Source of the DNA: Macrostomum lignano
Lineage: Eukaryota
Length of the DNA: 33,938 bases
Assembly (NCBI GenBank): GCA_002269645.1
Contig: NIVC01004832.1
Coordinates: 1 to 33,938 of the forward strand
Reading direction: 5' to 3'
Shown: positions 363-33,938 of the stretch, in pieces
Layout: each line of letters opens with the position of its first letter
Numbering within the stretch: position 1 is the first letter of the stretch
Program-made: the position numbers and the translations under genes
The notes under the pieces: model-generated
Databases searched by the model: none
What the model was told of the DNA's origin: nothing
What the model saw: only the letters and a program-made list of their open reading frames with translations

Positions 363-3300
363 CTGCACCGGCACGCGTCGCTTCCCGTGAGGAAGCGCAA
401 GAAGCGCCGCTTATTATCCTCGTCCAGATCCTGGTGAAACACCGACCAGAAGTTGGCGATGAGCTGCTGGTAATCCGGGCTGGGGTTCAACGTAGATGGC
501 CCCCTGCTCCAGCTGGTCCCAGTCGAAGCAGCCGCTCTCGCCATTGATGATCGCCTGCAGCTCCTGCGGCTCCAGCAGCGGCAGCACCGGGCTGCCGCAG
601 GCGCGCTCGAATCCTGCCTGAAAAGCATCGAAGGCGTCGCGACAGCTGCGGTTCAGCACGAAGTCCACATAGGCGGACACGTAGGACTCTCGGTTGCCAA
701 GGGTGACGCGGTCCTCCGGACTAGCCGACAGCGGCACGCGCTGCACGTGGTCGAACATTTTGGTCTCGATCTCGAAGTTCAACTCGAGTTCTTCCACTGA
801 GTTCGCCGTCTCCGCATCAAGCAGCGACTGCAGGCTGTTCCCCACGGTCGGGTCGAGCTCTTTGAGGTCGTCAAGAGCAACCGGCTGTCGCAGAAGCTTC
901 TAAGAGAGCCATCGGGAACGGCACAGCGGCCAGGATGCTGTTGTAGATTGCCAGGCCCAGCAGTGTTCCGATGAGGCTGAAGTTCTCGGGGCACTCCAGC
1001 GTGCTGTGGTTGAACCAGACAAGATTCGAGTCAAAGCAAGTGAACATGCCGTACACGGGGTCAAGGATCTGGCGAAAGATCAACAGAAAGAATTCTTTTG
1101 TTAGGCCACCCTCGTCAACGGCTTCTTCGCCCTTGAAGGTGATCCGAAGCGGCTTCTTCAGCTCGGCCGGGTGGCAGCTGCTGAGGCTGACTACTGCATC
1201 CTGGATCAAGGCCTGCCGCGCCACCCGCAGCACTAGGAAGGGGCTACGCATGTCAAAGATTGCGCCGAACGTAAAACCCTGAAATAGGTTAAACATCATC
1301 GCCTCGCGAAAGGCCTGCTCCATCTGCATCCGAGCGTCAACCTTCAGCAGCTCCATCTTGGCGTGACCGTCGAACACGAATGGATATTTGAGAAAGCTAA
1401 ACTGGTTCCGGTTTTCCGTCCAGGCGCGGTAGTCCTTCTCCAGGGGCACCCGGTCGCGGATTTCCGCGAGGTGAAACGAAGATGCGGGCAGGCGATCGCG
1501 TCGGTCACTGTTGAGGGCGTGCAATCGCTTCAGAAAGTCCAGGCACGGTCGGAGACGCCGGATCCGCTGCTCGTCTGCGTCGACTTTTGCAGCCTCATTT
1601 GCCTCACCATTGGCGTCGCAGTCGCTGGACACGAGCAGGTGCTGAGCAGCCCGGATCAGGCAGCGCACCAGGCGGGCAAAGTGGCGAAGCCGGAGCTCCA
1701 TGATCCAACTCAGCAGGACAGTCATCAGAGGTCGCGGTAGCCGGAGCACCAGCTCTGCCAAAGCCGGCTGCAGCGGTCCCGGTGACTCGAACTCCGGACT
1801 GAGCGGCAGAAGCAGCAACAGACGAAGGCATTCGGCGTCTGCCAGGTGGGCTTCTTCGCGTTCTGTCAAGTCCGTTAGAAGCTCGGTCTGCGCCGCCAGC
1901 AGCTCCTGGCGTCTCTCCGGGTTACTGACCGCAGCTGCGCCCAGCCGTTTCTGCAGAAACTCGGCCGCTGCGTCGAGGTCGAGGCCATGCCAGCCCGGCC
2001 GAGGATTCTCGTGTTCAATATCGGGGAGCAGGAAGGCGCGGGCGTAGGCAGCGGGACACGCGGCGATGGCCAAACAGCCCGGCCAGTCGCCGTCGGATCG
2101 CACGAGTCGAGCGACAAAAGGCCCTCCGGGATGGATAACTTTGCGGCCATCGGAGGCCCGCCGACTCGTAAGAATGCACGCCCACCGCCAGCGGAAACAT
2201 CAACGTCACCTGCACCGCCTGGGCCCAGGGTCAACGGCCAGGGTTTATTGCGGACGCTAGCTGAGGGACCAACAGTACCAAATGCGTAAACCCGGCCTCC
2301 TTGACAGCTGGCGTACGTGACTGAGGTGCCGCAGTCGGCGGTTACCACCCGAGAGCCCATCAGCTCCGCAACCTGTCGCGGTAGCGACTCGCTGGAGTTG
2401 CTTCCGTGGCCCAGCTGCCCGAGGTCGCCGGCGCCAAATGTAAAGAGGCCGCCATCAGCAGTGACGGCAGCGGTGTGCTCGTGCCCGCAGGCAATCCGAC
2501 GCACCCGTCGGTTGCGCAGGGCGGAGCACTCGACTGGTAGCGGCCGGCTAGCATTTCCGTCCTCGGTGCCGCATCCGAGCTGGCCGCGGTCATTGGAGCC
2601 CCAGGCCAGAAGGACAGCGCTGTGCGACAATACAAAGCTGTGCCGCCCACCGCAAGCGATCTGGCGGACTGGCAGACCGCCAAGGCGGCGCACTGGCGCC
2701 AGTCCGGAGCCGGTCTGACAGTGGCCGCGGCCCAGCTGGCCATGCGAGTTGTCGCCGAACGCAAATACCTGGTGGTCTGCGGTGAGCACCAAGCTGTGGC
2801 CGCCTCCAGCAGCCACCAAAACCGCCCGGTGACCCATCAGGGGGGTCACCGGCCCTACTCTGAGCGAGCCACCGCCGCCTGACCCATCGTCCGCTCTGGG
2901 GCCCAGTTGGCCGCAGGAGTTGCTGCCCCACGCTAAGACCTGGCCTTCCGAAGTCAGCGCCAGCGAGTGCCGTCCACCGGCCTCCAGCTGCGTCACTCGA
3001 CTCGACGTTGCCAGCGACTTGGCGAGACCCGGCACTGGCGCGAACTCTTCGTCCTCGCCGTCGCCACTGCGGGACAGTGCGCTGCCGTCAGATGTCAAGA
3101 GCAGACAGTGACTGTCACCAGCTGCCACTGTGAGAACAGCAGCCGCCAATGTCGGTTTCAGGGCCACTTCGGTTGGCAGAGCCTGCCACGAGGTACGCGA
3201 GTCGTTAGCCGGGGACTTGGAGAGCGGCTCGCCAACCATCAGAAGCTTCGGTGTAGAATGCTGAGGTTCGCTTGTCCTGATGCTCTGCTTGGGAGCTGGC

Positions 3301-3431
3301 GGTTTTTTCCGGGTTGGCTGCTGATCAGAGAGTTTGCCACCACTCTGCTGCGTTGACTTTGGCAGTAGTTTCCGCGAATCAGTTTGCTGTAGCAGTGGCT
3401 GCTTCGGGCGAGCCTTCTCGGCGCTGTCCAT
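363..3431 (-). CDS. HERC4: Small HERC E3 ubiquitin ligase (HERC3/4-like): low-complexity N-terminus, RCC1 repeats, middle helical region, HECT domain. One ~3 kb exon; final exon is off-window. Four apparent single-base frameshifts.
   Basis: RCC1 motifs (VAAGGGHSLVLT, IACGHEHTAAVTADGGLFTFGAGDLGQLGHG). HECT motifs (LKKPLRITFKGEEAVDEGGLTKEFF, LLGLAIYN, LDDLKELDPTVGNSLQSLL, RFLRFLTGSD-R-VP). Frames join after 1-nt shifts near 2100, 900, 482-485 and 378. GTGAG donor at 362-358. Symbol is family-level only. Confidence 0.88.
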
Positions 3432-4169
3432 AGCTTGGATGTTGGATGCACTTATAAAATCACCGCGACCCGACGGCGGTCTTTCCAGCTTGTCCCCCTG
3501 TCGATTCAGGTAAGCCCTACTCAGGCTCTAGCTTGTGTTAGCATAAAAAACTTTTCTCGCTTTATACTGTGGACTGGCTGTGAAGCTGTACGAGTCGTTA
3601 TAGCAGCCATTTTTGTTGAACGGCTCTCTGTACTCTCAGGCAGCGCGCGCCGCTCAACTCTGCCCTCGGGCGCCCATCCCCCTTCCCCGTGCAGCCCCAC
3701 CCCAACCCCCGATAGCCCGGCGCACGGGGCGAGAATTTCATAACCGCGCGCGCTCCCCGACGTTGCCCGGACAGACACACTCACCTAAAACTATGCTGTA
3801 GACAAAGTACACGCTAGATAAAGATAGTAAGCACTGACTTCTGCGCGCAGTTACTACCCCATTACTTGCCACCAAGCAAGTACACGAACTCAACTGCAGG
3901 ACAGGGAGGTTGCAATTTTCCAAGACCTCCTGCACCCAATTCCTCTGCCTTTTCATGCCATCAAGGACGCTTGACTACAAATCTGTTCCGAGAGGTAATG
4001 CGCTTCTAACTAACAGGCCTGCTCAAGAAACAAGCTTAACATTCTCACGTAGATGCAATAAGCAAACTGCAGGTACTGTAAATGCATGTACGTGCGTTTC
4101 AAACTCCTAAGGCATAAATATGATGCAGTACAGATTCATCGAGTACATACACGTACGACTGTTCAGTGA

Positions 4170-6114: not shown

Positions 6115-6234
6115 CTGAGAGTAAAGGCAGCGGTGCACAATACTGCTCATAAGCCTTGGTATACGGTTCGGGAACCTTAGTTGAATTTGGCGTTCCCAGG
6201 CAAACCGCCTTTGAGAGTCATTCACAGAACATGT

Positions 6235-6342
6235 GGGCTGTCGTGCGATTCACAGCCATGAAGGCCAGTTCCAAAGGCACAGAGAGTCAGGACCGCTGTA
6301 CACCCTGTGTGAGCGTGTGAGTGCGTGCCTGCGTACAGTATA
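6235..6342 (+). mobile_element. Diverged SINE family A fragment leading directly into the 50-bp array
   Basis: GCCATGAAGGCCAGTTCCAAAGGCACAG and GTCAGGACCGCTGTACACCCTGTGTGAG align to the SINE A body (GCCTTGAGAGCCAACCCTCCCAAGGCACAG...GTCAGGGCCGCTGTACACTCCTATGTGAG). Confidence 0.7.
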
Positions 6343-8927
6343 GGCTCAGAAGTCAGTGGAATGGGCAGAATTGCCTCAGCGCTGGTTGTGTTGGCTCAGA
6401 AGTCAGTGGAATGGGCAGAATTGCCTCAGCGCTGGTTGTGTTGGCTCAGAAGTCAGTGGAATGGGCAGAATTGCCTCAGCGCTGGTTGTGTTGGCTCAGA
6501 AGTCAGTGGAATGGGCAGAATTGCCTCAGCGCTGGTTGTGTTGGCTCAGAAGTCAGTGGAATGGGCAGAATTGCCTCAGCGCTGGTTGTGTTGGCTCAGA
6601 AGTCAGTGGAATGGGCAGAATTGCCTCAGCGCTGGTTGTGTTGGCTCAGAAGTCAGTGGAATGGGCAGAATTGCCTCAGCGCTGGTTGTGTTGGCTCAGA
6701 AGTCAGTGGAATGGGCAGAATTGCCTCAGCGCTGGTTGTGTTGGCTCAGGAGTCAGTGGAATGGGCAGAATTGCCTCAGCGCTGGTTGTGTTGGCTCAGA
6801 AGTCAGTGGAATGGGCAGAATTGCCTCAGCGCTGGTTGTGTTGGCTCAGAAGTCAGTGGAATGGGCAGAATTGCCTCAGCGCTGGTTGTGTTGGCTCAGA
6901 AGTCAGTGGAATGGGCAGAATTGCCTCAGCGCTGGTTGTGTTGGCTCAGGAGTCAGTGGAATGGGCAGAATTGCCTCAGCGCTGGTTGTGTTGGCTCAGA
7001 AGTCAGTGGAATGGGCAGAATTGCCTCAGCGCTGGTTGTGTTGGCTCAGAAGTCAGTGGAATGGGCAGAATTGCCTCAGCGCTGGTTGTGTTGGCTCAGA
7101 AGTCAGTGGAATGGGCAGAATTGCCTCAGCGCTGGTTGTGTTGGCTCAGAAGTCAGTGGAATGGGCAGAATTGCCTCAGCGCTGGTTGTGTTGGCTCAGA
7201 AGTCAGTGGAATGGGCAGAATTGCCTCAGCGCTGGTTGTGTTGGCTCAGAAGTCAGTGGAATGGGCAGAATTGCCTCAGCGCTGGTTGTGTTGGCTCAGA
7301 AGTCAGTGGAATGGGCAGAATTGCCTCAGCGCTGGTTGTGTTGGCTCAGAAGTCAGTGAAATGGGCAGAATTGCCTCAGCGCTGGTTGTGTTGGCTCAGA
7401 AGTCAGTGGAATGGGCAGAATTGCCTCAGCGCTGGTTGTGTTGGCTCAGGAGTCAGTGGAATGGGCAGAATTGCCTCAGCGCTGGTTGTGTTGGCTCAGA
7501 AGTCAGTGGAATGGGCAGAATTGCCTCAGCGCTGGTTGTGTTGGCTCAGAAGTCAGTGAAATGGGCAGAATTGCCTCAGCGCTGGTTGTGTTGGCTCAGG
7601 AGTCAGTGGAATGGGCAGAATTGCCTCAGCGCTGGTTGTGTTGGCTCAGAAGTCAGTGGAATGGGCAGAATTGCCTCAGCGCTGGTTGTGTTGGCTCAGG
7701 AGTCAGTGGAATGGGCAGAATTGCCTCAGCGCTGGTTGTGTTGGCTCAGAAGTCAGTGGAATGGGCAGAATTGCCTCAGCGCTGGTTGTGTTGGCTCAGA
7801 AGTCAGTGGAATGGGCAGAATTGCCTCAGCGCTGGTTGTGTTGGCTCAGAAGTCAGTGGAATGGGCAGAATTGCCTCAGCGCTGGTTGTGTTGGCTCAGG
7901 AGTCAGTGGAATGGGCAGAATTGCCTCAGCGCTGGTTGTGTTGGCTCAGAAGTCAGTGGAATGGGCAGAATTGCCTCAGCGCTGGTTGTGTTGGCTCAGA
8001 AGTCAGTGGAATGGGCAGAATTGCCTCAGCGCTGGTTGTGTTGGCTCAGAAGTCAGTGGAATGGGCAGAATTGCCTCAGCGCTGGTTGTGTTGGCTCAGG
8101 AGTCAGTGGAATGGGCAGAATTGCCTCAGCGCTGGTTGTGTTGGCTCAGAAGTCAGTGAAATGGGCAGAATTGCCTCAGCGCTGGTTGTGTTGGCTCAGG
8201 AGTCAGTGGAATGGGCAGAATTGCCTCAGCGCTGGTTGTGTTGGCTCAGAAGTCAGTGGAATGGGCAGAATTGCCTCAGCGCTGGTTGTGTTGGCTCAGA
8301 AGTCAGTGGAATGGGCAGAATTGCCTCACGCTGGTTGTGTTGGCTCAGAAGTCAGTGGAATGGGCAGAATTGCCTCAGCGCTGGTTGTGTTGGCTCAGAA
8401 GTCAGTGGAATGGGCAGAATTGCCTCAGCGCTGGTTGTGTTGGCTCAGAAGTCAGTGGAATGGGCAGAAATGCCTCAGCGCTGGTTGTGTTGGCTCAGGA
8501 GTCAGTGGAATGGGCAGAATTGCCTCAGCGCTGGTTGTGTTGGCTCAGGAGTCAGTGGAATGGGCAGAATTGCCTCAGCGCTGGTTGTGTTGGCTCAGAA
8601 GTCAGTGGAATGGGCAGAATTGCCTCAGCGCTGGTTGTGTTGGCTCAGAAGTCAGTGGAATGGGCAGAATTGCCTCACGCTGGTTGTGTTGGCTCAGAAG
8701 TCAGTGGAATGGGCAGAATTGCCTCAGCGCTGGTTGTGTTGGCTCAGAAGTCAGTGGAATGGGCAGAATTGCCTCAGCGCTGGTTGTGTTGGCTCAGGAG
8801 TCAGTGGAATGGGCAGAATTGCCTCAGCGCTGGTTGTGTTGGCTCAGGAGTCAGTGGAATGGGCAGAATTGCCTCAGCGCTGGTTGTGTTGGCTCAGAAG
8901 TCAGTGGAATGGGCAGAATTGCCTCAG
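6343..8927 (+). repeat. Highly homogeneous 50-bp tandem array (~52 copies) in DCN1 intron 1
   Basis: Unit GGCTCAGAAGTCAGTGGAATGGGCAGAATTGCCTCAGCGCTGGTTGTGTT with only sporadic single-base variants and no spacers. Confidence 0.98.
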
Positions 8928-8979
8928 AAGGCGTTGCGTCAGGGCGGCCGCACCTATCCAGCAATTAGTAATATTATTA

Positions 8980-20674: not shown

Positions 20675-21226
20675 GTGAGATTCTGACTGCTAATTTTGGC
20701 AGTAGTATAGGAAAAGTAGGTTTGAGCGCAACCCATTTTGAAAAATCACAAAAAACAGATAAAAATCGACTAAAAACAGGTGAAAATTGTCTGAAAACAG
20801 TGATTTTAGTGATTTTTCAAAAGTTTCGAAAAATTGCTTTTTGCGCGATTTCGTGAGTAAAACCACAAGAAATTTTTGATTCGTGGGTTAAAATAACCTA
20901 TTTTCATGTTTCATCATTTCAAAACTAGCATCAAATTTAATAATAGTCTTTTCTCCCATTGCATAACGCCCTTCAATAAGCCAATCTTACTAGCTTTGCT
21001 TTTAACGATCAGTCAGCTACCATCTATGCATAAAAATTGTCCACTCGAGGCATACAATGCTTTTACAAAAGTCAATAATTTGCTCCTGCACATTCGCTTT
21101 GTCCCGAGGCTTTGAAATGGCTTTAATGTTGTTCTAGATTTGTACTTAAAGATAATAGAAGACATTCAAGAACATGGAGCGCTAATTTAAATTTTTCGTG
21201 GCATGCATACTCGACTACTAGAGCAC

Positions 21227-21780
21227 TAACCGCAGCACTCAACATTTCTATTGGCTGCCAAAATTTCTGCCAAAACCAAAATTTTTGCCAAAATTTCTGC
21301 CAAAAAGTGTTTGGTTTTGGCATCCAATAGGAGTGGCTCGTGCAAATCTTTTGTGTTCACCCTCTATCTAGCTGTAAAAAAAGACATGAAGTGGGCCACG
21401 CAAGTTACAAACGAACAATGCTCTCGCGACCCTACCTACGGACGATTTCACTAACCCTTTTCTAAATTATGTATCTTAAAAATGGAACAAATAGCAGGAG
21501 AAATTCTCCTCAAAGCAATTTTTATATTGTGACTCAGCTTTAACGTCGTGCGAAACCCACACTGAGTGAAGCGTATGGTCAAATAGGCTCTCGCAGGAAC
21601 TCACCAAACTAACTATACATAACCGCAGCACTGAACATTGCTATTGGCTGCCAAAATTTCTGCCAAATCTTGCGACCAAAATTTCTGCCAAAAAAGTTTT
21701 GGTTTTGGCAACCAATAGGAGCGTCTCATGCTAGTCTATTGTGTTCACCCCCTTTCTAAAAAGACACGAAGCGCACCACG
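21227..21780 (+). repeat. Two ~160-175 bp direct repeats (21227-21400, 21620-21780), each with a 16-bp inverted repeat enclosing GCCAAAA iterons
   Basis: Both copies begin TAACCGCAGCACT. Arms CTATTGGCTGCCAAAA and TTTTGGCA(T/A)CCAATAG occur at 21248-21330 and 21641-21718. Confidence 0.9.
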
Positions 21781-21790
21781 TTACAGAATC

Positions 21791-21958
21791 ATGCAAGATA
21801 AGAGACTATACAATAGGCGAACCACTAGAGTATAATGGAGAAGGTCTTTTTTGATACTATAAGCACCATATCAAACTTAGTAAAAGACAAATCTACCTTT
21901 CATAGAACAGGCAGGTGCAGCAGCAGGCTCTATTGCTACAGCAGTTAACGCAGCCTAA
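21791..21958 (+). pseudogene. Small frameshifted ORF, probable amphipathic core peptide
   Basis: Joining frames gives ...NGEGLFDTISTISNLVKD-LPFIEQAGAAAGSIATAVNAA*, resembling the EGEGIGDMISGVTNFL segment of the 23303 ORF. Needs about three indel corrections. Confidence 0.4.
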
Positions 21959-21991
21959 GTCTGTAGATTACTTAAATTTATTTTTATAAAA

Positions 21992-23349
21992 ATGGCCTTC
22001 AGTAAACCATTATTTCTAGGTTCTGCATTGGATATTCAGTCAGCTATAACAAAACTACCACCCATCTTCGCCACTGGAAAATATCCTGGCGAATTTCATA
22101 TTCCAGGGTATTCTTTCACTGGCCCAGGTACAAATTTAGACAAGAGACTCAATCCAATTACAGACTGGCCTCGGTATGTAGTCTACCAATTAATCCAATT
22201 GATTGGACTGCTTACTATCATGACAAAAGCTATAGAGATGCTGAAAAGACGTCTTCAACTCCAGAGGAAGCCCTAGCAAAGAAGCATATTGCTGATGAAA
22301 AAATGATAGCTGATTTAGATGCTATTCCAACCAGCGACTTGTCGGTAAAGGAGAGACTCATTAGAAATCTAGTAAAGCGTATTATCAATGCTAAAGTTCG
22401 GTTTGGATTAGGAATTCATACTCACAACCCCAACAATTGTATAGACTGTCTAACAATTTATGGTAAGGGTCTTAGCTATGAAGATGCAGTAAAATTGCAT
22501 AGGGAATACAGAAAGCCAAGAGTATTTAGAAAAATGATTCACTATGCAAAAGACACAATTTGGCATGCAGATATCATTATCCTACCGCCCGAAAGAGGTT
22601 ACAAATATGCTCTCACTATCATAGATGGTTTTACACGTTACGCCTGGGCAGTTCCTTTGAAAACAAAGACGGGAGCGGAAGTTGCAGAAGCTTTCCAAAA
22701 AGTATTTAAGGAATCAGGAAGACGATCAGAGAGACTTTGTGTAGATGAAGGCAAGGAGTTTTATAATCAGCATATGTACAAGCTATACTCGTTTTCAAAA
22801 GACAACATTAGAAAGAAGGATGAAAGGGGTGAATATATTAACAAGATGTTTTCAATTTATGGCGAGTCCAAGAATGCAATGATTGAGAGGTTCAATCGTA
22901 CTCTCACAAATAAACTCTGGTTTGAATTTGATCTACAGGGTAATCAGAAGTGGCTCCACACATTGCCAGCTATTGTTGAAAAATACAACAACACAATCCA
23001 TTCTGAGATTCTGATAACTCCTTCAGAAGCATCTAAACATCCTGAGCGAGTACCAAAGCCAACTTTCGAGTATTCAAATGAGAAACCAAACTTCAAAGTA
23101 GGTGACAAAGTTCATATCTATAGATATAAGGAGCACTTTGAAAAGGGTCGAAGAGGATATTGGAAAATTTCAGAAGTGTTTAGGATAAAGAAAATAGTTT
23201 ACTCCAATCCCATAACCTACATTATTGAGGATGAGAATGGAGAAGAAATCATTGGATCATTTTACAAATCCCAGCTTCTACCAGCAAATTTTTCAACTAA
23301 AAATGAGCGCCTATCGAACAAACTGCAAACGGGCGAAAGGTCAGATTGA
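21992..23349 (+). CDS. Parvovirus-like phospholipase A2 (PLA2X) domain joined to a retroviral-type (rve) integrase; one frameshift near 22170
   Basis: GYSFTGPGTNLDKRL (Ca-binding loop, frame 2), then LPINPIDWTAYYHDKSY (catalytic HD, frame 1). Frame 1 stays open into WHADII...IIDGFTRYAWAVPLK...VDEGKEFYN...IERFNRTL (DDE) and the C-terminal FKVGDKV...SFYKSQL. Confidence 0.88.
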
Positions 23350-23725
23350 AACGTCTGATTCACAACTACTAGCTGATAAAGAGGGTGAAGGAATTGGTGA
23401 TATGATCAGTGGTGTCACAAACTTTTTATCAAATCATGGAAGTAAAATTGTGAGTGGAGCTGATGCAATAGGTAAAACAGCTACCACAGCGAAGAACATA
23501 TTCGATGCGAAGAAATCATACAGTGACATGTCTAAAGCAGGTGAGGAACTGGAATATATTAAAAAGAAACGTAGAGATAAAGAAGCAAAGAAAAGAATGG
23601 AAGAAGAGCAACAGATAGCTTCTCAATCAAATAAGGCTATTCAAGATATTGTTAAAAAGGCTCTAGGAACAGCAGAACAGTCTCAAGTGTCTTTGAGACA
23701 AGGCAATGGTTTGAAGAAATTCTGA
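23303..23725 (+). CDS. Basic, amphipathic putative virion core / membrane-active protein
   Basis: ATG in TAAAAATG context. EGEG then the amphipathic IGDMISGVTNFLSNHGSKIV, a K/R/E-rich coil and a C-terminal QGNGL. Confidence 0.7.
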   Translation: MSAYRTNCKRAKGQIETSDSQLLADKEGEGIGDMISGVTNFLSNHGSKIVSGADAIGKTATTAKNIFDAKKSYSDMSKAGEELEYIKKKRRDKEAKKRMEEEQQIASQSNKAIQDIVKKALGTAEQSQVSLRQGNGLKKF

Positions 23726-23733
23726 CCTTAAAA

Positions 23734-24186
23734 ATGAGCGAGAAAAACACTGAAGCAAGACTCAATCGATATGTTCGAGAGGGAAAACCAAGATATGTTA
23801 CTGTAAATAAGCAAAAGCAATATCTTTCTAAAGAGAAGATTCGAGAATTGCAAGAGAAACAGAAAGAACATGAAGGTGGAATAATTCCTCTATTAGGCTT
23901 ACTACCAGCAATATTGGGTGGTATCGGAGCAGCCTCCGGAGTTGGTACAATGATTGCAAAAAGTGTTAATACAGCCAACAATGCTAAGCATAATAAGACA
24001 ATAGAAAGCATTGAACGACAAAAACTAGAAGAGTTGAAAAAGGCTCAAGGGAGTGGAGTGTTAGTTGATGCGGCTAAAAGAGTCGAACAAGTACCCAGCG
24101 AAGCAGTCAAGTGGCTGCTAAAGACTTTTAAAGTTGAAAAGGAGAAACAGGGTAATGGGATAATTCTTAGACCTCACGAAGCTTAG
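23734..24186 (+). CDS. Putative membrane-lytic core protein (adenovirus pVI/pX-like role inferred)
   Basis: Basic N-terminus, then GGIIPLLGLLPAILGGIGAASGVGTMIAKSVNTANNAKHN, matching the GG-hydrophobic-AKAV..A...RHN pattern common in Polinton small proteins. Confidence 0.75.
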   Translation: MSEKNTEARLNRYVREGKPRYVTVNKQKQYLSKEKIRELQEKQKEHEGGIIPLLGLLPAILGGIGAASGVGTMIAKSVNTANNAKHNKTIESIERQKLEELKKAQGSGVLVDAAKRVEQVPSEAVKWLLKTFKVEKEKQGNGIILRPHEA

Positions 24187-24206
24187 TTGAAATTTCTCGT
24201 ATAAAA

Positions 24207-25572
24207 ATGGAGAACAAAAAGGATATACTGAACCTATATGAGGACAAAACTTTTAGCTTTTTCAAAAAGAAAGAAGACTATATTAAGATTTCTCCAACAC
24301 CAGGTAGCACTAATAATCTCAATGTTGCAGGAGGTCAAATAGTTCATGAAGTCAATTCAACAGAGTCATACATTCTCATGTCAGAGGCATTCGGTTGTAT
24401 AAAATACTCAATAACACAAAGAGATAAACACCGACTTGAATACGAACATTACTCTAGAACATAATTGGCCTATGAGACTTTTCTCTCAACTCATAGTTGA
24501 CATTGGAGGAACAAAGAAAGTCTATAATGATCCTGGAGAGTATGACACAATCTTAAAGTCCGTAATGTACTCAAAATTGATGAATGAAGTTGGAGAAGCA
24601 TACGGATGGATTCCAGACACTGGAGATGCTGGGACTGTTTCTGATATAGCTCTAGCAAACAACGCAGATGCTGAAGCTGTGAGAACTGCAGCAATCGCTA
24701 TGAAAAATAGACTCAATAAGAAGGATTCGAATACTGGATACATTAGGAGGCTTGAAAATTATAACAATGTCACTAATGCTCCAAACAGAGGTGGAACAAT
24801 CAAACTATCATTAACACCCCTCATTGGGTTCCTTGATTGGCAGAAGATTAGCAAAGGAATTAAATATAAATTCACATGGACAAGAAAGACTAACGATGCT
24901 GAAATTTTCTTTGGAGCTGCCGGGACGGAAGCTAAGTTAACTATTAATAGCTTTGAGATTTGGATCCCTGCTATTACTTTGTCACCCAGTGCTGAAGCAG
25001 CTTTTCTAAAATCACTCAACAAGGACATTACAGTATCATTTCCAGAGAGGGTAACGGTTCCGCCACAACTCATTCAAGGAAGTCCATATACATGGAACAT
25101 AGCCAACATCTCCAATATGCCACTTGCAATCTTTGTAGCTTTCAAATATGACGTAAACAACCCATCATATATAGTTAATGATCACAAGTATGTGTCTTAC
25201 AAAACTGGAGCAAATGCAGTGAAAATAACCCAGCTTCAAGTCAGATTAAATCAGGTGATGTATCCGAATGATTATGTTGAAATTGATCCAGTAGCTCAAG
25301 ACATTCACAGAGCATATGAAATGTACGAGGACATCTGCAGCCGTTTCGGTGTAACTCCACCATTCAATAAACAAGACTTTCTAACAATCTATCCAATATT
25401 CTGCTTTGATCTAACAGCTCAGGATGAGTTTCTTGTCAAGAGTGGAGTGAATATTCAATTATTTATCAAGAAGTCAACTAATGTTGAGCTGACTGCTTTT
25501 GCACTAATTCTTGAACAAACAAAGAATGTAATAAAAGTTACCAGTGAATATCAAATGACCCGCGTCGAATAA
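24207..25572 (+). CDS. Major capsid protein (double jelly-roll, hexon-like); one frameshift near 24420
   Basis: ORFs 24207-24464 and 24436-25572 join to ~455 aa. Polinton MCP-style motifs: LFSQLIVDIGG, WIPDTG, LTINSFEIWIP, ITQLQVRLNQVMYP, YPIFCFDLT. Confidence 0.85.
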
Positions 25573-25593
25573 GGTCATTTTTTCTTTTTTTAA

Positions 25594-26367
25594 ATGCCCA
25601 AAGTAAAATTTCGGCATGATCCTATTTTCCCTAATCCTCTTTTATGTTGTATTATCGGCGCTACAAATACGGGTAAAACATATTTACTATTCCATATTCT
25701 TACAAGTCCTGAAAAACTAGTTGACTTTAATGAGTTAGTTTTATATGTTCCCAGAGCATCTCAAATGGATCCAGAGTATCAGTTTCTAAAATATGGCTTT
25801 GAAAATGGTCTCCCACCTTCTCTTATCAACTCACTCTATCATGTCTACCAGGTGAGTGAGGATGCATCTCCTGAAGATATTAGACATATTTGTCGAGAGG
25901 CAGCCAACCCTGGTCGAGTGCAAAGCACATCAGAAAATTCAGAAGTAATAGAGAAAATTCCTGTCACTCTTTCCCATACTCCAAATGAAGAAATTTTTCA
26001 TAATGGACTAAAGACATGTGTGATATTGGATGATGTTTTGGGAGAGGCTAATCAAACATTTCAGGAAAGTCTGTTTCAGAGAGGCAGGCATGGAAACTGT
26101 TGTGGTTTTTATCTAGCTCAAAATTTTACCAAACTAGATCGCAATACTGTCAGGGAGAATACGACATGTTACATAATCTTTAAACAAAAAGATACAAACT
26201 TAAATCACATTGCTAGAAATATAGAAACGAATTATGAACCCGCTATATTCAAGGCTAAATGTAGAGAGGCTTGGAAAAAGAAGTATGGCTATATCTATAT
26301 AAATACAAGAGCTGATGAGGATGAGCAAGATTTGTATAAGGATGTTCTAACTAAAATCCCATTGTAA
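25594..26367 (+). CDS. A32/FtsK-like DNA packaging ATPase
   Basis: Walker A IIGATNTGKT, Walker B VILDD, and the RGRHGNC...LAQ...VREN arginine-finger region. Confidence 0.93.
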   Translation: MPKVKFRHDPIFPNPLLCCIIGATNTGKTYLLFHILTSPEKLVDFNELVLYVPRASQMDPEYQFLKYGFENGLPPSLINSLYHVYQVSEDASPEDIRHICREAANPGRVQSTSENSEVIEKIPVTLSHTPNEEIFHNGLKTCVILDDVLGEANQTFQESLFQRGRHGNCCGFYLAQNFTKLDRNTVRENTTCYIIFKQKDTNLNHIARNIETNYEPAIFKAKCREAWKKKYGYIYINTRADEDEQDLYKDVLTKIPL

Positions 26368-26369
26368 AA

Positions 26370-27100
26370 ATGACTAATGAATATATAAGAGAACTCATTA
26401 ATTTAGCAAAGCAGCGAGAAATGTACAAATCCAGAAATGATGCTCAACGCTATTTGAAAATTGGAGAAGAGAGTTTATATGCAAGAGTGGCTCCATTAGC
26501 TCAAAAACCTGTCACAGAAAAGCTCGATGAATTTATTGATGTCAATGCCAACCTTGTTGATAAACTTCAGAATCAAAAAGTTCCAGTTCCGCAATCAAGT
26601 ACACCAAAAGGCCGATTTGAACCCCTAGAAGTATTTGACAAAATAATTGAAGAAATTGGAAAGATTCCAATAACTCAAAGACCAGCGCCTAGTATACGGA
26701 TTCAAAAAACTGATGCTGGATATATATTTGGATCATCTGTAATAGATGTTGAATTCCATGAACAAGGTCGAGACATCATTGTCAACGAATTTCGAATGCC
26801 ATTTTCTGAAGATCTTGAAGAGTTGTTCAAAATGCCTAAAGTAACTGAAAATGGTGAAGAGCTGAAGCAATTCAAGATGCAAACATTGCAGGATTATGTT
26901 AACCTCATTGAACATTGTAAAAATCCAGCGGCCAAATCAAGTGGGAATTATAAGCAAGCAGTAAGGATATTGAAAGATAATCCACCAGGATATCGAGTAA
27001 AACCGGGATCTGGACTCAGTGAAAGAGTGTTGACATTACTAGCCGCAAAAGCAGAGGACATAACAATGTTGATAAAGAGCTAGCAGAATTACTTGCTTAA
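26370..27100 (+). CDS. Conserved Polinton protein of unknown function (PZ-like); probable frameshift near 27055
   Basis: N-terminal YLKIGEE...KPVTEKL pattern. Adding one G gives the C-terminus PGSGLSERVLTLLAAKAGGHNNVDKELAELLA*, whose TAA abuts the next AAATG. Confidence 0.6.
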
Positions 27101-27102
27101 AA

Positions 27103-27892
27103 ATGGAAAAAGAAATAGAAAAAGTCAACATCCTCTTGAGTAAAAAGTTTCAACGCACATTTGACTTCTTTTCAATTAAAAACCCATTTCGACAAACTCT
27201 AGGCACTCCGATAAATTTGTATGAAGATCGAGAATACGAAGCTGGTATAAAAAAGTTTGCAGTCTTTGATGCTATTAACAATATTGAAGGAGGCAATAAT
27301 GAGTTGCGATACTCGAGGGATAGTGGTAGAACATGGAAAAAATAAAGATTCAAGCAGGGATCTTGGGAAGTTAAAAGTCTGTCAAGCGAGATTCAAAGAT
27401 TGCTAACAGCTGCAAATGATTGGAAAGAGGGGGCTATTGTTTTCAGTGCAAGCCTAGACACGCGTAGAGTTGAGTTACGGTTAGCCACAGATTATCAAGT
27501 TGATTTCAGGGATGCACATTCCAATAACTTTAGAAGACTGTTGGGATTCAATTCGGAAGTGTATTTGAAACCATTTGAGAGAGCTCCAAATCCAGCTCGG
27601 ATAGACGGAGCTAGAAGTGCGATCATGGTTCGTTGTCTAAATACAAAGGGGGTTTATCACTGATCCAGCTAATGGAAATCATTTAATTGATAAGCAAATA
27701 CTTCTTTCAATTCCATCGTTCTCTGTCCCAATGGGAAGTAAAATTATTCAAGAGCCCGCAAATCCTGTGTACCTACCACTAACTACAAACATGTTGAGCA
27801 CATTCGACTTTGTCATCGAAGATGAGTCTGGTGTTCTATACGACTTTGATGGCGAGGAAATATTTATAAATCTTCACATACGACAAATATGA
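27103..27892 (+). CDS. Minor capsid protein (penton-like single jelly-roll); breaks near 27340-27355 and 27650
   Basis: NNIEGGNNELRYS...TWKK-I-GSW...LLGF, with C-terminal EPANPVYLPL...FVIEDESGVLYDFDGEEIFINLHIRQI*, the typical Polinton penton ending. Confidence 0.82.
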
Positions 27893-27901
27893 GTGTTAAA
27901 A

Positions 27902-28332
27902 ATGAGCGAAGCTGAGACATGGAATGCATTTAAACAAAAGTTTGGGACTGACACTACGACTAATATTGATCTGATAATTGGGCAAAATATCTCAAGTTAA
28001 AACCATTTCGCTATGCCATGAGAGATGAAATTGTTGATTTACCACAGTATGGTTACTTTATGACAAATATTCACACTTCGAAAGAACGGGGTATACATCA
28101 TTCAGCTATATTTTCAGCTCCTGATAAGGTTTATTTTTTTGATTCCTATGCACTACCGCCCACACTGGAAATTATGGAAAAGTTTAATCACACAAAGAAT
28201 AGAATATGTGGAGACATGGAAGAACAAATTCAAACTTTTGATAAGAAATATTGTGGTCAAATGTCGCTGTACTTTTTACACCGAATCGATAAAGGAGATA
28301 GCTATAACGAAATTTTGCAGCAATTAAAATGA
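27902..28332 (+). CDS. Adenain-like cysteine maturation protease; one frameshift near 27980
   Basis: TNIDL-NWAKYLKL...MTNIHTSKERGIHHSAI (His), YFFDSY (Asp), QIQ...YCGQMSLYFL (oxyanion Gln, Cys). Confidence 0.88.
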
Positions 28333-29707
28333 GTTACAAGAATACTGCCAATCAATTTGGTTACTCGTCAAATTCAAATGATATAGCACCTGGTATAACA
28401 ATAGCGTTAGCTGATGAGCGATACATCAATGAAAATGAAGTATATAAGAGAGAGGAAATAGATAATTTATTGTTAGCAAAGAGAAATGTTTCAGACTCTT
28501 ATTCAAAGGAAGATAGTGACGCAATGAATATCACCATGCTACAATTAATTGACGATGCTCATGGGCGCGTAAACAATGTCTACACAAAAACCGAAACTGA
28601 CACTAAGATGTATTCTAAAACTGAGATTGACACTAAGATGTATTCTAAAACTGAGATTGACACTTTGTTAGCAGAATGGCAAGGTACTGCGGGAGGTACA
28701 GAGAGTTCGAAATTAGTCAATATTCTTTCATTACTGACTTCAAACGCTTCCCATTCTGACATGAAAGTGACCGCTTCTCATAACTCTTCAGCAGCATATC
28801 ATGTTGCAGATTCAAACCCAGCTTCAGATTGGAGCAGTGCAGATGACTCAGACAAGTGGATACGATTTCAATTTTTGAAAAGAGCTAGGAAAGTTGTAGA
28901 GATAAAGTTGGAAGGAGAGGTGTGGCCTGGTTGGTCTGTTAGTGTGAGCCTAAATGGAACAAACTGGACACCTGTTGAACAAAGTGCACCCATTGAACTA
29001 CGAAGGGCAATGCACATCTTAGGAAAAAAATACCCAATCCCTCATATTATTTCCATTATTCTCTTAATTTTTCTGGTTCCGTAAAGCTTACAAAAGTTGA
29101 ATTACTTGAGAGACAAACAGTGGTTAATGATTTAGTGTGGCCTATAGATAGACTTCAAGCTGTACCAAAGCTATACGTAGACAATGCACTTGAATCAGTG
29201 GAGCTGCGACTAAGGCGGGGACTAGGTTTCAAATCTTATACAGGATATATTCCCTCACTAGCAACACGTCAAAACTATAGAGAAAGGGGTTTCAATGTAG
29301 CGTCATCAGGAGCATTTGAAACGTCAGATAATTGGGGTTATATAGTATCTAATTCAGAATGGGCATCGAGGAATGAACCCAATTCTTACATTGAAGTACA
29401 ACTTCCCGAGTCTATTCAAATTTGGAAATTCGGATTGAAAGGAACCAAAGCAGTAGGTAGTGAAATTATAAAAAATCAACCAAAAAGTTTTATTCTGAAA
29501 GGGAGCAATAACAAGAGAGACTTTAGGAATATTTTTTCTACCGAAAACGCTGGTTTAGTTCCTGGAGTCATGAAATATTTTGAAGTAGCTTCCACCGAAA
29601 AATTCTCTGTTTATAGAGTGCATATTAATTCAGCCACTGAAGGATCAACCGTTCTTATTGTTTCAGGCTTTCAACTTTATCCGATTTTAGACATAATCGC
29701 CACATAA
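28329..29707 (+). CDS. Fiber/receptor-binding-like protein: YxKxEID repeats plus two F5/8 type C (discoidin/CBM32-like) domains; one -1 shift at A7 29024-29030
   Basis: Three 30-bp repeats YTKTETDTKM/YSKTEIDTKM/YSKTEIDTLL. Domain 1: VTAS...W...WIRFQF...SVSLNGTNWT. Domain 2: SS...W...YIEVQLP...FILKGSN...YRVHI...FQLY. The -1 frame from 29024 is open into ORF 29120-29707. Confidence 0.7.
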
Positions 29708-29709
29708 AA

Positions 29710-30450
29710 ATGAATGAAAAAAATGAACACATCTATCCTGTGGTTGAGCTGCATGAAGCAGATTTGAGGGAGCGGGACTATTTCAATCAGAGAAAGGGTG
29801 AAATCAAAGGCAGTATTGAATGCATTACTAAAGATCTTACAATTTATAGCAAAAAGGTAAAAAAGTACAAACGGCAAAGTAGCAGGATAAATTGGATCAA
29901 CATTGTGACAGGAAATGTAAGTCTCTTGGCTGCTACAGGAATTGGCATAGCAACATCGATACTGACATTGAATCCCTTAGTTATTGGAGTAGTAATCGGG
30001 GCAATGAGTGGTTTTGAAGCTGTAAAATCCACGTCGTTGTTTGCAACTGTGAAAATGCATTGCCAAAAGCAGAAGGCAAAATACATTTTTCTCAGAGATC
30101 TGGCAAATCAATACAGAGAGAGATTGTATATTTACTCCCAAAAAGCAGTTGATGATTATAGATTAACTCTTGAAGAGGTTCAAGCAGCTGCTGCAATTTA
30201 TTCAGAATACAGAGAAAAAAGAGATCAATTGTTAGACGCCTGTGTTGCGCCTGAAGAAGTTAACCATTCGGAAGTCGTTGATAAAATCCTCAAAGAGAGT
30301 AGACTTGGTCATTCAGCGAAGGAAAAAATTAAAAAGGAATTACTAGAAAAAGATCTGAGAGAAAAATTGGGTCTAGCTGATAAGCCAAAAGAGTACTCGG
30401 CAACACTCAATCTTCAATCAAATGCTCCAAGTGCACCTCCCTACAATTAA
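29710..30450 (+). CDS. Polinton coiled-coil/transmembrane protein (possibly the family annotated GasderminX in adintoviruses) with C-terminal PSAP
   Basis: IYP start, KKYKR before a long hydrophobic Gly-rich segment (VTGNVSLLAATGIGIATSILTLNPLVIGVVIGAMSG), then SQKAVDD..LTLEE. Ends NAPSAPPYN*. Confidence 0.7.
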   Translation: MNEKNEHIYPVVELHEADLRERDYFNQRKGEIKGSIECITKDLTIYSKKVKKYKRQSSRINWINIVTGNVSLLAATGIGIATSILTLNPLVIGVVIGAMSGFEAVKSTSLFATVKMHCQKQKAKYIFLRDLANQYRERLYIYSQKAVDDYRLTLEEVQAAAAIYSEYREKRDQLLDACVAPEEVNHSEVVDKILKESRLGHSAKEKIKKELLEKDLREKLGLADKPKEYSATLNLQSNAPSAPPYN

Positions 30451-30475
30451 TATTGTATAATTTTTTTTCTAGAAA

Positions 30476-30781
30476 ATGGCTGCAATAAAAGTTCTCCTAA
30501 ATGCATACCAAGATGAAATAAAGCGCATTGATAGAGAAATACAAATAAATAACTTTAGGGAGGTGCGTACACATTGTGGAATAATAGAACCGGATTATGG
30601 ATATATTGATAAATTAAGTGATCGCAAATGTTTTCTTGAAACTGCTATTGTTTTTGCAGAAGCATTTATTGAAGATGAAATCGACAAGTTAGTTAAAAAA
30701 ATAAAAGAGATCAGGAAGTATGTTGAGTTTAATGATCAGCGCAAGAAACTTCTTAAGCAATTGAATTGTTTGGTTTTTTAA
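30476..30781 (+). CDS. Hypothetical protein (101 aa, helical)
   Basis: Clean ORF with AAAATG start, packed between the neighbouring genes. No recognised motif. Confidence 0.55.
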   Translation: MAAIKVLLNAYQDEIKRIDREIQINNFREVRTHCGIIEPDYGYIDKLSDRKCFLETAIVFAEAFIEDEIDKLVKKIKEIRKYVEFNDQRKKLLKQLNCLVF

Positions 30782-30783
30782 AC

Positions 30784-33700
30784 TTATTTGAATCCATGAG
30801 GATGTGTTATAATTCCATTGGATTCAATGTATCTTTTGTCATCGAAAGGACTAATAGCCTTCTTATTTTGTTCTATTAAAGTCATGTTATGCTTGTCTGA
30901 TCTAAGGCTATACACTTTCCTATAGACTGGTTCGTTATAATCAAGTAGTATATTTCTATAGTCATCATATTGTACATGATGCTTCACTGTTGACTTTGAG
31001 ATTCCCTTTAATTTTTTCTCTTCCTTCCCTTCCTTTTGAGTGCTGACATAAACTGTTTTAAATGAATATGCTTTCGATCTTAGAGCGGTTACTTCTGTCA
31101 TTATGCAATCATATTTTGCCAATTCATCCTTGAATGTTCCCAGCTTTCCACAATTATTCATATCATGTAAATCAATCGGAAAATTTTTAGTATACAGCGA
31201 CAAATCGAAATGCTCCTTCATCTGAGCAATGTCTTTATAAATATTTTCTGTCTTTATATGAAGAATGAATGAGTCGGTGTCAGAGGTAACAATCTCAACA
31301 TTATCCCCCCATTTGGACTTGAAAACTTTGTAAAATGTTTCATACATATGCAATTTCGAGAGATCCAGAATTGCTTGTCCAGCGTATGTTGGCTTTGTTC
31401 CAAGAGGGATATTCTTAGGTCGCTGGTGAATGCAAATTAGATTTTCATTGAAGATTTTGAAGTCTATGAAATCTGGCTTGGATATTATCTTAGATATCTC
31501 ATCCTCACTTGTCAGCAACTCAAATCGCTTTCTCTTTTTAACATCCTCCATTGTCTTGCCAAAGATGCTTACATTAAGCATTTTGAACTGATTGTCTTCG
31601 AACTCAATTTTTGCTTCTTTTGCCTTCTTTCTTTCTATCGTATTAAACTCGATATACTCCTTTAACCATGGCTTTTCATTGAATGAAATCGTCCTATGTA
31701 CTTTTGTCACTTTCAAGCCCATCTCTTCATAGAATCGCAATAGCTTATGATGTACGATATATTTTGTTTTATTTTTTAAATTAAGGATCAATTTAGGAAC
31801 TTTTCCAATCTTTTTCATTTCGACTTCTAGACATCCTTTCTGATATTCACTCAATTCACTTTCTGACACAGTTGTACTTTCAGGTGCTAATGGGAAGGCA
31901 TACGTTTTCTTTTTTGATTCTTTTGTATATTCAAGATCACATTCAACAAGACAGCCCCGTCCTTCAGGAGGATTTTTATAATAGTTGGAATCAGCTTCCC
32001 ATTTAAAGTCAGAAAAAGGAAGGGGTTCCAACATACTATAACCATAGAGATTTGTACAATCAACGTAAAGTAAGTAGGAAGTTGGTTTTTCTAAATCATA
32101 GCCTGGAAGATAAGGATTATTTGCCTTTACATATCGTGACCCTAGAACTCCGCTAAATCCACCTCTTATTCCACTATCAATCATATGAATCATATCGATA
32201 TCCGCCAGCAAGTCTAACTCAACTTTACTTTTCTTCAACCCAGCATTCCAACTCAATCCTGGTGCTGAGAAGCATCTGGCTGGATCAATCTCAAAGTGTT
32301 TCAGGAAGAATGTTCTATAGCGTTCGAATACATCTGCTAATAATAGAACGTCAACCTTAAGATACAGCATCATATAATCCTCCAAATTCTTACAATTAAA
32401 AGTTTTCCACATTTGTTTTGCAAAATCATATTCATCTGAAGAAATGTCTTCACCTTTCAACCTCGAGTAAAACTCTTTCAATGGTGGTAACTCAGTTTCT
32501 GCTAATCTTCCAAAGCTTCTGATATACTCATATGGGAATACACCCTTGCGCTTAACATATTGAAAATCGCTGTCGTTTTTAAAGTATTTCTTTGTTATGA
32601 TGAAGTCTTCATCCTTCAGGGACTTTGCGCAGATATCCAGCGAGGAAGCCAAGAACCTGTATGAATCTAGGAACCTCAGTACTACTTTGTTACATCCAAA
32701 CTCGAGAGAAATGTACTCTTCAGAAGTTTTAGATAGTGGAGGAAATAATTTATCCTCCATGGTCTCTTTGCTCTTTAAGTGTGTCACTAAGAAGTGAAAG
32801 TCATAGTGGGATCCATTCTGGAAGTAGATTGGGATTACTCGCTTCTTACTCTCGAGAGCATTGCAGGATTTACAGGCAGCCCCTCTATATTTGCCACTAT
32901 AGTGACAATGTTCTCTTACCTTACCTAGCTTAAGTGTAAAGTCATTTTTACAATTCGCACATTTTTCAGCCCTGTAAAACTCTTTCCATTGTTGCTTTGT
33001 GATCTTATATTTACTTATATTATTGCTCTTGTTCAGACATTTTTTGCACCAAGATTCTATAGTAACTTTACTGTCAATTTCCTTCACATGCACCTTCATA
33101 TCTGGAACCATATCAAACTCCTTCTCGCATATGTAGCATTGTTTAGCCTTACAGAAAGAAGCCTCCTCTTGCGATGTCAAATTATGATTAATATGCTTAG
33201 GCTCCTTCAGACCATTCTTAATTTGTTGATAAATTTCAACCATTCTATCAACATATTTTTCCTTGGCATCTGTGCCACAATATCCTTCATACTTCGATTT
33301 AATTACCTCGGGTAACTCAGAATGGATATAAAAACCGTAAGCTATTGCGTTCTGATTTGCTACTTTTAGAGTATATGACTCTTTGTCTAAAATCTTAGTG
33401 AAGCTTTTACTTTGTGCTTCAATGGGTTCAGTTGTTGCTTCAAAGTCAGCATAGATAGCGATGGGTAGCTTTAGTTTGAATATATGATTCTTAAATTTCA
33501 GCTTCGATTCTTCCTTAGGTAATTTATAAAGACCGGGTGCATTTTTACCGCACAACCTTGAGTGCTCGGCCAACACGTTTTCACTTGTGTAAACAGTCAT
33601 GCATGTTCTGCATAAAAATGACTTGTGATTTACACGCTTTCCAGTTTGTTTTGAAACTAATGTTGTAAGATTTTTTATCAGACAATAATGAGTCTTACCA

Positions 33701-33938
33701 TCTTCCTCCAGGTATAGTAAATCTACTACATAAGTTCGTTGATTATGAGGTGAGACATAGAGATGTTGTAGTGTATCTGGGAATTTACCTTCATAATACA
33801 GCACATTAACAGCAAACTCTTCATTTAGTCTTTCAAACTTTTTTATATCTTTTATTCTCATGGGAATTGGATATCGGTGAGATTAAGTTCTTTTCATATG
33901 GTTTATATTTTGACACTCGATAACCATCTTTATTTGTG
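30784..33938 (-). CDS. polB: Protein-primed family B DNA polymerase; N-terminus continues off-window via a frameshift near 33865
   Basis: Exo I IYADFE, Exo II NGSHYDFHF, Exo III YLKVDVLLLADVFE. Pol motifs YVDCTNLYG, KMLNVSIFGKT, SDTDS and KLKGI. Endonuclease VII-like REHCHYSGKYRGAACKSCN. Upstream KYKPYEKNL-LTDIQFPM joins after a 1-nt shift. Confidence 0.95.

Follow-up and report, generated by a model that had tools for sequence, protein, structure and literature searches.

In a Polinton/Maverick element from Macrostomum lignano, the first large gene encodes a parvovirus-type phospholipase A2 (PLA2X) in frame with an rve integrase, as our analysis of the window (the whole stretch of DNA under study, 33,938 nt of contig NIVC01004832.1) confirms. 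We propose, with a probability of about 0.6, that such a fusion would serve as a Gag-Pol-like precursor, cut by a protease, through which the integrase is packaged. This proposal draws on the conservation of the fusion among relatives, on a glycine motif at the junction, and on the ways in which relatives join the same integrase to its upstream partner.

The element occupies the window from about position 20,701 to its end (Table 1), with its probable left end inside the window and its right end outside; the left end carries AGTAGT, which we take to be a Polinton terminus motif. Its gene set comprises a double-jelly-roll (DJR) capsid protein, an A32 ATPase, penton-like fragments, a protease-like ORF, F5/8-domain ORFs, one ORF with a weak likeness to SLATT and, on the other strand, a polymerase; the element combines the D-D-E rve integrase, protein-primed family B polymerase (pPolB), DJR capsid protein and packaging ATPase that characterize Polintons/Mavericks. 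The polymerase ORF (1032 aa) matches polymerase ORFs of related loci in tblastn, down to E 1e-169, and Pfam finds only endonuclease VII in it (PF02945, E 7.7e-8); beside these matches, we assign it to PolB by motifs that we presume to be those of the family. The pX-like protein has no Pfam pX match, and similar ORFs at related loci match PF05829 weakly (E 0.005 in L004, E 0.046 in L001); the protease fragment has no Pfam match either, and homologous domains reach Peptidase_C5 weakly. In the window copy, the capsid, penton-like and protease genes (24171-28332) are each broken across frames, and the stretch 28308-29707 holds fibre-like ORFs in which short repeats occur along with two weak matches to F5/8 type C (carbohydrate-binding) domains; L030 has a similar domain. 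The flanking DNA contains eukaryotic genes in fragments: minus-strand ORFs at 400-3530 are presumably an RCC1-HECT ligase-like and a DCN1-like host gene. A 50-bp unit, tandemly repeated about 53 times, fills 6188-8960. Since at least half of the sampled window words are present in 20 public runs from 8 studies, we regard the element as one of a multi-copy family.

Table 1. Features of the element, in window coordinates.
Feature	Position	Strand	Basis
Putative Polinton left end, AGTAGT	20701..20706	+	Loose contig ends at 20700/20701, runs X2 and X15
Element-type start motif TAAAAATG with the fusion-gene ATG	21987..21994	+	Motif count
PLA2X N-terminal part: short leader, FLGS..LDIQ, YSFTGPGT calcium-loop motif (22109-22132)	21992..22174	+	Alignment of relatives
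Frame break within PLA2X	~22170..22190	+	Contigs of other runs; unbroken relatives such as P0002
PLA2X catalytic half (His-Asp, Tyr, Asp), ending in KVRFGLG	22180..22413	+	Alignment, profile, motifs
K-x-[KR]-[LF]-G-x-G motif (KVRFGLG in the window); putative protease site	22393..22413	+	Conservation in relatives
Lineage-specific linker with Cys/His segment and second Gly motif	22414..22494	+	Common to P0001 and P0007; not in P0002
rve integrase, intact D-D-E, without N-terminal domain and chromodomain	22495..23349	+	PF00665, E 2.6e-10
pX-like core protein, separate gene, HEGG-IIPLLGLLPAILGGIGAA, more G-x-G motifs	23734..24186	+	Motif list
Double-jelly-roll major capsid protein, two frames in the window copy	24207..25572	+	PF21738, E 1.6e-13
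A32-type packaging ATPase	25594..26367	+	PF04665, E 1e-5
Adenain-like maturation protease, stop-to-stop fragment	27970..28332	+	35% identity to the L001 protease ORF, E 4e-17
Protein-primed family B DNA polymerase with endonuclease VII-like insert	30784..33882	-	5' end towards the window edge

The sequence-only reading held that the PLA2 catalytic half runs into the DDE integrase with no stop between them, and this is what we find: the frame 22006-23349 is open throughout and contains the PLA2 catalytic half, KVRFGLG, the linker and a full D-D-E integrase. Specifically, the catalytic motifs of the phospholipase are DWTAYYHD (22201-22224) and a second Asp in ADEK (22291-22302), the linker carries HTHNPNNCIDC (22417-22449) and IYGKGL (22456-22473), and the integrase triad lies in WHAD (22561-22572), VDEG (22741-22752) and IERF (22882-22893). 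The features of a parvovirus-type PLA2X (His-Asp, Tyr, Asp and GPG loop) are all present, split across two frames in the window copy, and FLGS..LDIQ aligns to the GG-DIQ motif of relatives. The C-terminal pX-like domain of PLA2X is absent from the window protein, where the integrase takes its place and the pX-like ORF is separate. The combination of PLA2 and rve in one reading frame is that of the proteins called PLA2-Integrase in the supplement of PMC11071296. The window protein has no C-terminal chromodomain, a criterion for adintoviruses in the same source, and some fused relatives have one. With PF08398, the split window halves score E 0.025 and 0.011, both under the cut-off, and the unbroken relative P0002 scores E 3.5e-10; the PLA2X profile finds AAV VP1 (E 2.5e-5) and, at a weak level, secreted PLA2s. 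The predicted structure of P0002 (pLDDT 84, pTM 0.60) consists of a helical N-domain and an integrase core that matches foamy virus integrase (E 5e-11), and the fold search yields retroviral integrases. Because the matches listed by Foldseek for the two-domain model are all of integrase type, the PLA2 assignment rests on sequence profiles.

A single indel in the PLA2 region had been suggested to separate the catalytic half from the ATG at 21992, and we locate this break at about 22,170-22,190. At this position, contigs of 4/4 runs, from four studies, differ in length from the window; therefore, the break is either private to the window copy or an assembly error. The same can be said of the break in the capsid gene, since contigs of the same four runs also differ in length near it. 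At the junction itself, a stop or frame change after FGLG, which would have spoken against the fusion, was not found: the frame is open and two X15 contigs span the passage from FGLG to the integrase without a gap (22291-22583 and 22353-22609), with no indel in 22,250-23,030 among the 12 indel rows listed of 23. Comparison of the window with contigs of other runs further shows that, of the 12 codons of this frame hit by 13 listed substitutions, 9 are changed synonymously and none to a stop, a count that covers the 40 listed of 185 differences.

The fusion gene begins at a motif that recurs in the element. TAAAAATG has 19 matches in the window against 3.7 expected, and 10 on the plus strand of the element, of which 9 lie at or just 5' of ORF starts; between 21,995 and 23,297, a stretch that includes the separate integrase start near 22500 by which the sequence-only reading would have been refuted, it has no match. 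Most of the element's ORFs over 21477-33620 have the motif at their start. Ahead of the fusion gene, a unit is repeated in two copies (21227-21400 and 21620-21780, 86-96% alike, about 390 nt apart) that carry ATTGG and CCAAT boxes and GCCAAAATTTCT repeats and look promoter-like, and the gene is directly preceded (21790-21960) by a short, interrupted ORF that contains NGEGLF, ends in an Ala/Gly-rich stretch and resembles a minor core peptide. No RNA run with the window sequence was found among the 24 runs listed.

The same architecture is widespread among homologues. PF08398 and PF00665 occur together in 60/120 of the homologues listed (401 found), at 32-70% identity, and with our own PLA2X profile the count of fusions rises to 77/120. 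In an alignment of 32 rows (31 of the 60 fusions and the window piece), the PLA2 residues D71, H77, D78, Y81 and D99, the junction residues K132 and G136, and the integrase residues D179, D237 and E284 are invariant, and G138 is conserved at 90% or more. Most of the fused integrases in this alignment have no N-terminal domain; integrases with that domain are fused as well (P0321, L076 and L048). On a quick tree of 113 integrase cores, for which the sample was seeded with a fusion and which gives no order of events, the window falls in a clade of 23 rows (SH-aLRT 100), 22 of them fusions, and the fused state requires at least 7 changes. These patterns of sequence conservation indicate that the PLA2X-integrase fusion is old and selected.

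Judged over PLA2X proteins at large, the fusion is, by the sequences sampled, a minority state. A search for PLA2X only returned 3,965 representatives, and the best 150 of these comprise 7 integrase fusions, 48 short-tailed proteins, 89 with long other tails and 6 partial ones. In a family around L051 (P0340-P0493), a DUF5679 zinc ribbon (PF18930) mostly lies N-terminal of PLA2X, a domain that the window is without. In P0316, P0208, P0234 and P0252, PLA2X shares one ORF with pX-like and protease or penton sequences, with repeated GxG-LY motifs. The scan of IMG/VR gave 23 loci and no further PLA2X-integrase junction, and that of GTDB gave 2 loci, L121 and L122, which are Polinton contigs within two bacterial MAG records and are probably misbinned.

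The linker is where the sequence-only reading had to be revised. Of the features that it emphasized, the first Gly site, K-x-R-F-G-L-G, is conserved: the first G-x-G after the PLA2 domain is found in 28/32 dereplicated fusions, and three of the remaining 4 have GxG or GG by eye. Both IYGKG, the second site, and the Cys/His segment are lineage-specific; neither was retained as a general feature, since a second Gly motif occurs in 4/28 linkers and CxxC in 2/28, at linker lengths of 0-69 aa. The first motif is also present in 80/89 long-tailed stand-alone PLA2X proteins, and GG or GxG stands ahead of the PLA2 domain in 18/30 fusions. By this distribution, the first Gly motif is likely to be a protease site. 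The cleavage consensus of adenain is (MIL)XGXG (10.1101/341131), which the window's I-Y-G-K-G fits; the conserved site has Lys/Arg at P4 in 25/28, where the consensus has Met, Ile or Leu, so that a relaxed specificity of the protease has to be assumed. Such a relaxation is plausible because the position that corresponds to the pX cleavage site varies as well: the window has HEGG there, and relatives have VEGG, IEGG, RVGG or KRGG. A precedent for a cut core protein is LO6 of adomaviruses, which carries adenain motifs and is apparently cleaved in virions (10.1101/341131). On the other hand, the glycines could be structural, since the AlphaFold model of P0002 runs the last PLA2 helix (H116-143) through the motif, with confidence below 50 at 137-142, the motif itself. 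Gly motifs seem more frequent in the element's presumed core proteins (8 sites) than in its other ORFs (3 sites); we did not count this as evidence, since the motif itself had helped to assign the core label.

PLA2X is not the only partner of these integrases. An adenain-like protease is fused ahead of the integrase in six rows of the tree, at three places, and also in P0087 and L133; the in-frame fusions of this kind are L059:128-1471, L083:1787-3145, L090:535-1899, L048:274-1803, L133, P0077, P0087 and P0101. Peptidase_C5 scores below the cut-off in 5/7 of the protease-integrase fusions scanned and gives nothing in 2/7. Their junctions read RGSG, VTGSG, HLGG, MIGGG, MVGG and LTGAG; at P4, MIGG, MVGG and LTGAG carry a hydrophobic residue, as the adenain consensus does.

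Many relatives do not join the two genes in one frame. PLA2X lies directly ahead of an integrase head at 43 of 122 loci, with 19 junctions in -1, 6 in +1 and 18 in frame 0 (counted over loci without dereplication), and a stand-alone PLA2X-like gene is found at 14 more loci. A heptamer X_XXY_YYZ that is in phase and leaves the shifted frame open occurs at 13/19 of the -1 junctions, 3/6 of the +1 junctions and 1/18 of the in-frame ones, compared with 32/563 background windows. At 17/19 of the -1 loci, no Met precedes the first catalytic Asp in the integrase frame; L003, counted as -1, is actually in frame through the first motif and breaks later. When all 19 -1 junctions were folded, 4 had a strong stem and 15 none at z -3 or lower. 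The stems, with z from -3.8 to -4.2, begin 5-7 nt after A_AAA_AAC (5, 5, 7, 7 in L036, L051, L076 and L028); refolding of seven junctions left the three others without a stem. The spans of heptamer and stem are L036:736-800, L051:1521-1585, L076:1964-2030 and L028:1004-1085, and they comprise three unrelated stems. An alignment of two stem sequences contains no double change in the main stem, which shows little. On the starred branches of the quick tree, the -1 state requires at least 4 changes.

To these loci a protein census adds a footprint of the slippery site. With the PLA2X of L051 as query, in a search that left out long proteins, 109 clusters were parsed among the 120 listed of 548; the tails of all 109 stop at most 35 residues past the Gly motif, and 105/109 contain [STPA]-K-N, the translation of xxA AAA AAC, compared with 73/904 body windows and 3/68 long tails. 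The complementary search for long proteins yielded 44, 41 of them with an integrase domain, and [STPA]-K-N is present in 1/35 of those parsed. Since the census consists of proteins without their DNA, adjacency of the integrase is known for the loci only. For the L051 family, the census answers the objection that the shifted junctions are errors, and we regard -1 ribosomal frameshifting as probable in this family. Heptamer and stimulator are both present in relatives as sequence signals. The window copy has neither: its fusion is in frame, and the longest A run in 22414-22494 is four. Many junctions contain A7-A9 runs; for those of them without structure and for the +1 loci, polymerase slippage, decay or assembly error could fit as well. 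As a splice donor, a GTAAGT near three of the +1 junctions was discarded because about 17 nt separate it from the integrase.

What the sequences establish is a conserved fusion, together with the states of the junctions and the signals at them; from these we infer translation of a shifted product, cleavage, packaging and an entry function. The fusion gene would yield a single precursor, leader-PLA2X-GxG-linker-integrase, in which PLA2X, as a virion core protein, would bring the integrase into the assembling particle. The adenain-like protease would then cleave the conserved Gly motif, and probably also the Gly motif ahead of PLA2, releasing an active phospholipase for escape across a membrane and an integrase that would act on the incoming genome. 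The released integrase would start where the stand-alone integrases of sister lineages start; these often begin a few residues ahead of the ELHKP helix, the same helix as in the fusions. In the lineage of the window, the join would be fixed in frame, at a ratio of 1:1, whereas in many relatives most ribosomes would end past the Gly motif and a minority would slip by -1 at A_AAA_AAC into the integrase, so that recoding may keep the dose of integrase low in some lineages. The case for packaging and cleavage is strengthened by the frameshift-type junctions and the protease-integrase fusions of relatives, because one account then covers the in-frame, recoded and protease-carried states: the integrase would ride on a core protein and be released by the protease. 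Packaging of an integrase has been described for mavirus, according to a review (PMC6723459). We give about even odds to a broader version, in which a large Polinton branch would have its integrase only as the passenger of a virion core protein, with the dose set by programmed -1 frameshifting at A_AAA_AAC, with repeated switches between recoded and in-frame states or between carriers, and with convergence on the Gag-Pol strategy.

Other explanations share part of this evidence. The fusion may work uncut: PLA2X would stand in for the missing N-terminal domain of the integrase or anchor the complex of integrase and genome at membranes or at the capsid, and the Gly motif would do no more than cap a helix. 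The helix predicted through the motif, the non-canonical P4 residue, linkers as short as 0-5 residues and the lack of the N-terminal domain from most fused integrases would all suit such a protein. We nevertheless consider it improbable, given that the same motif stands in stand-alone PLA2X before unrelated tails and at protease-integrase joins, that integrases without the N-terminal domain also stand alone, and that integrases retaining this domain are fused too. Similarly improbable, in our judgment, is a passive fusion, in which a stop between adjacent genes was lost and an existing cleavage site rendered the join harmless, with expression coupled and packaging independent. Such accidents would explain why PLA2X is also fused to pX, penton or protease (P0316, P0208 and P0234; names such as 'PLA2X-Adenain'), why the two genes are separate in many Polintons, as at the 14 stand-alone loci, and why the fused state changes so often on the tree; but a slippery site with stems and no start codon for the integrase would be costly for a neutral join, and the protease has been used as a second carrier at least 3 times.

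The integrase might also be made mostly as a separate protein, from Met 22534, by splicing or from a non-AUG start, the out-of-frame junctions of relatives being decay or homopolymer error. Met 22534 lies in the fusion frame 5' of the first catalytic Asp, in a GAAAAATG context with one mismatch to TAAAAATG, and some Met is present in the equivalent stretch of 9/32 fusions; moreover, A7-A9 runs and +1 states occur, and several loci are broken elsewhere too. However, this Met is missing in the close relatives P0002 and P0007, and a start there would remove the conserved LHxxxRKP helix. Nor does homopolymer error predict what the independent clusters show, 105/109 of which keep S/T/P/A-K-N and a short tail, a segment that in-frame members lost. 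We therefore hold a mostly separate integrase to be quite unlikely. Lastly, several genes of the window copy have frame breaks, so one might ask whether its in-frame join is itself an assembly artefact; the gap-free contigs over the junction and the dozens of independent full-length fusions make this very improbable.

With its in-frame fusion, the window adds one more case to an architecture that has already been given a name: supplementary file 2 of PMC11071296 (Buck et al. 2024 preprint) lists 'PLA2-Integrase' proteins for Adinto15303 and Adinto6405, together with several PLA2X-Adenain proteins. They have the same order as the window protein (GG-D leader, PLA2 domain, K-x-G-x-G and LxxELH integrase), and the linker of the window is longer. 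'PLA2' has 0 occurrences in the main text of that preprint, its section 16 does not include PLA2-Integrase, and the relevant parts of PMC11071296 offer no cleavage, packaging or frameshift model for the pair. Section 16 does predict -1 frameshift isoforms for adintovirus Penton and Hexon-Adenain; these are other genes, and PLA2X-to-integrase is not among them. In Alpha adintoviruses and group 2 Mavericks, PLA2X is reported to have its own gene and to carry a pX-like domain at its C-terminus, and a role in entry has been proposed for it (PMC8502044, Starrett et al. 2021; 10.64898/2026.06.19.733378). Both that protein and ours place a parvovirus VP1u-like PLA2 in a Polinton virion module, whereas the window has an integrase at the pX-like position and the pX-like gene apart. 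An integrase and an Ulp1-like protease are also found in one polypeptide in a Ginger 1-like transposon (PMC4405056). That transposon is without capsid and PLA2. In the Polinton relatives the protease is N-terminal.

In retroviral Gag-Pol and Gag-Pro-Pol, the integrase is a C-terminal extension of a virion protein and is freed by the viral protease, with the dose set by -1 frameshifting at a heptamer followed by a stem; A_AAA_AAC is the gag-pro slippery site of MMTV and HTLV. In contrast to retroviruses, the Polinton is a dsDNA virus with pPolB and jelly-roll capsids, its carrier is an enzyme (PLA2X or protease) and not a capsid protein, and the window copy joins the two domains in frame.

As far as the literature could be searched, neither the recoded junction nor the change of carrier appears to have been described. 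Hyphenated names of the fusion had no match in a full-text search, and for Polintons a PLA2X-integrase fusion, a PLA2X-integrase frameshift and a protease-integrase fusion are all undescribed in main-text passages of the literature covered (including PMC3671162, PMC5803895, PMC11296320, PMC8097293, PMC4405056, PMC11131425, PMC10748475, PMC6723459, PMC8502044, PMC11071296, 10.1101/341131, 10.64898/2026.10.13.758929 and 10.64898/2026.06.19.733378); subscription journals, Repbase reports and other supplements may differ.

If the broader version of our reading is true, many annotated Polinton integrases would be truncated and start at a Met behind the first catalytic Asp. The 'Integrase' of Adinto13074 exemplifies this annotation trap: as listed in the supplement of PMC11071296, it starts behind the first catalytic Asp, after a short-tailed PLA2X. 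Beyond annotation, the passages of the literature that bear on them describe Maverick-Polinton virions as unobserved to date. That integrase and core protein are linked in a conserved, apparently cleavable and often recoded way makes sense mainly if particles deliver the integrase at infection, and for this reason the link would constitute genomic evidence for a true infectious cycle. Altogether, the proposal suggests that these DNA viruses, like retroviruses, may load their integrase into particles in a Gag-Pol-like manner.
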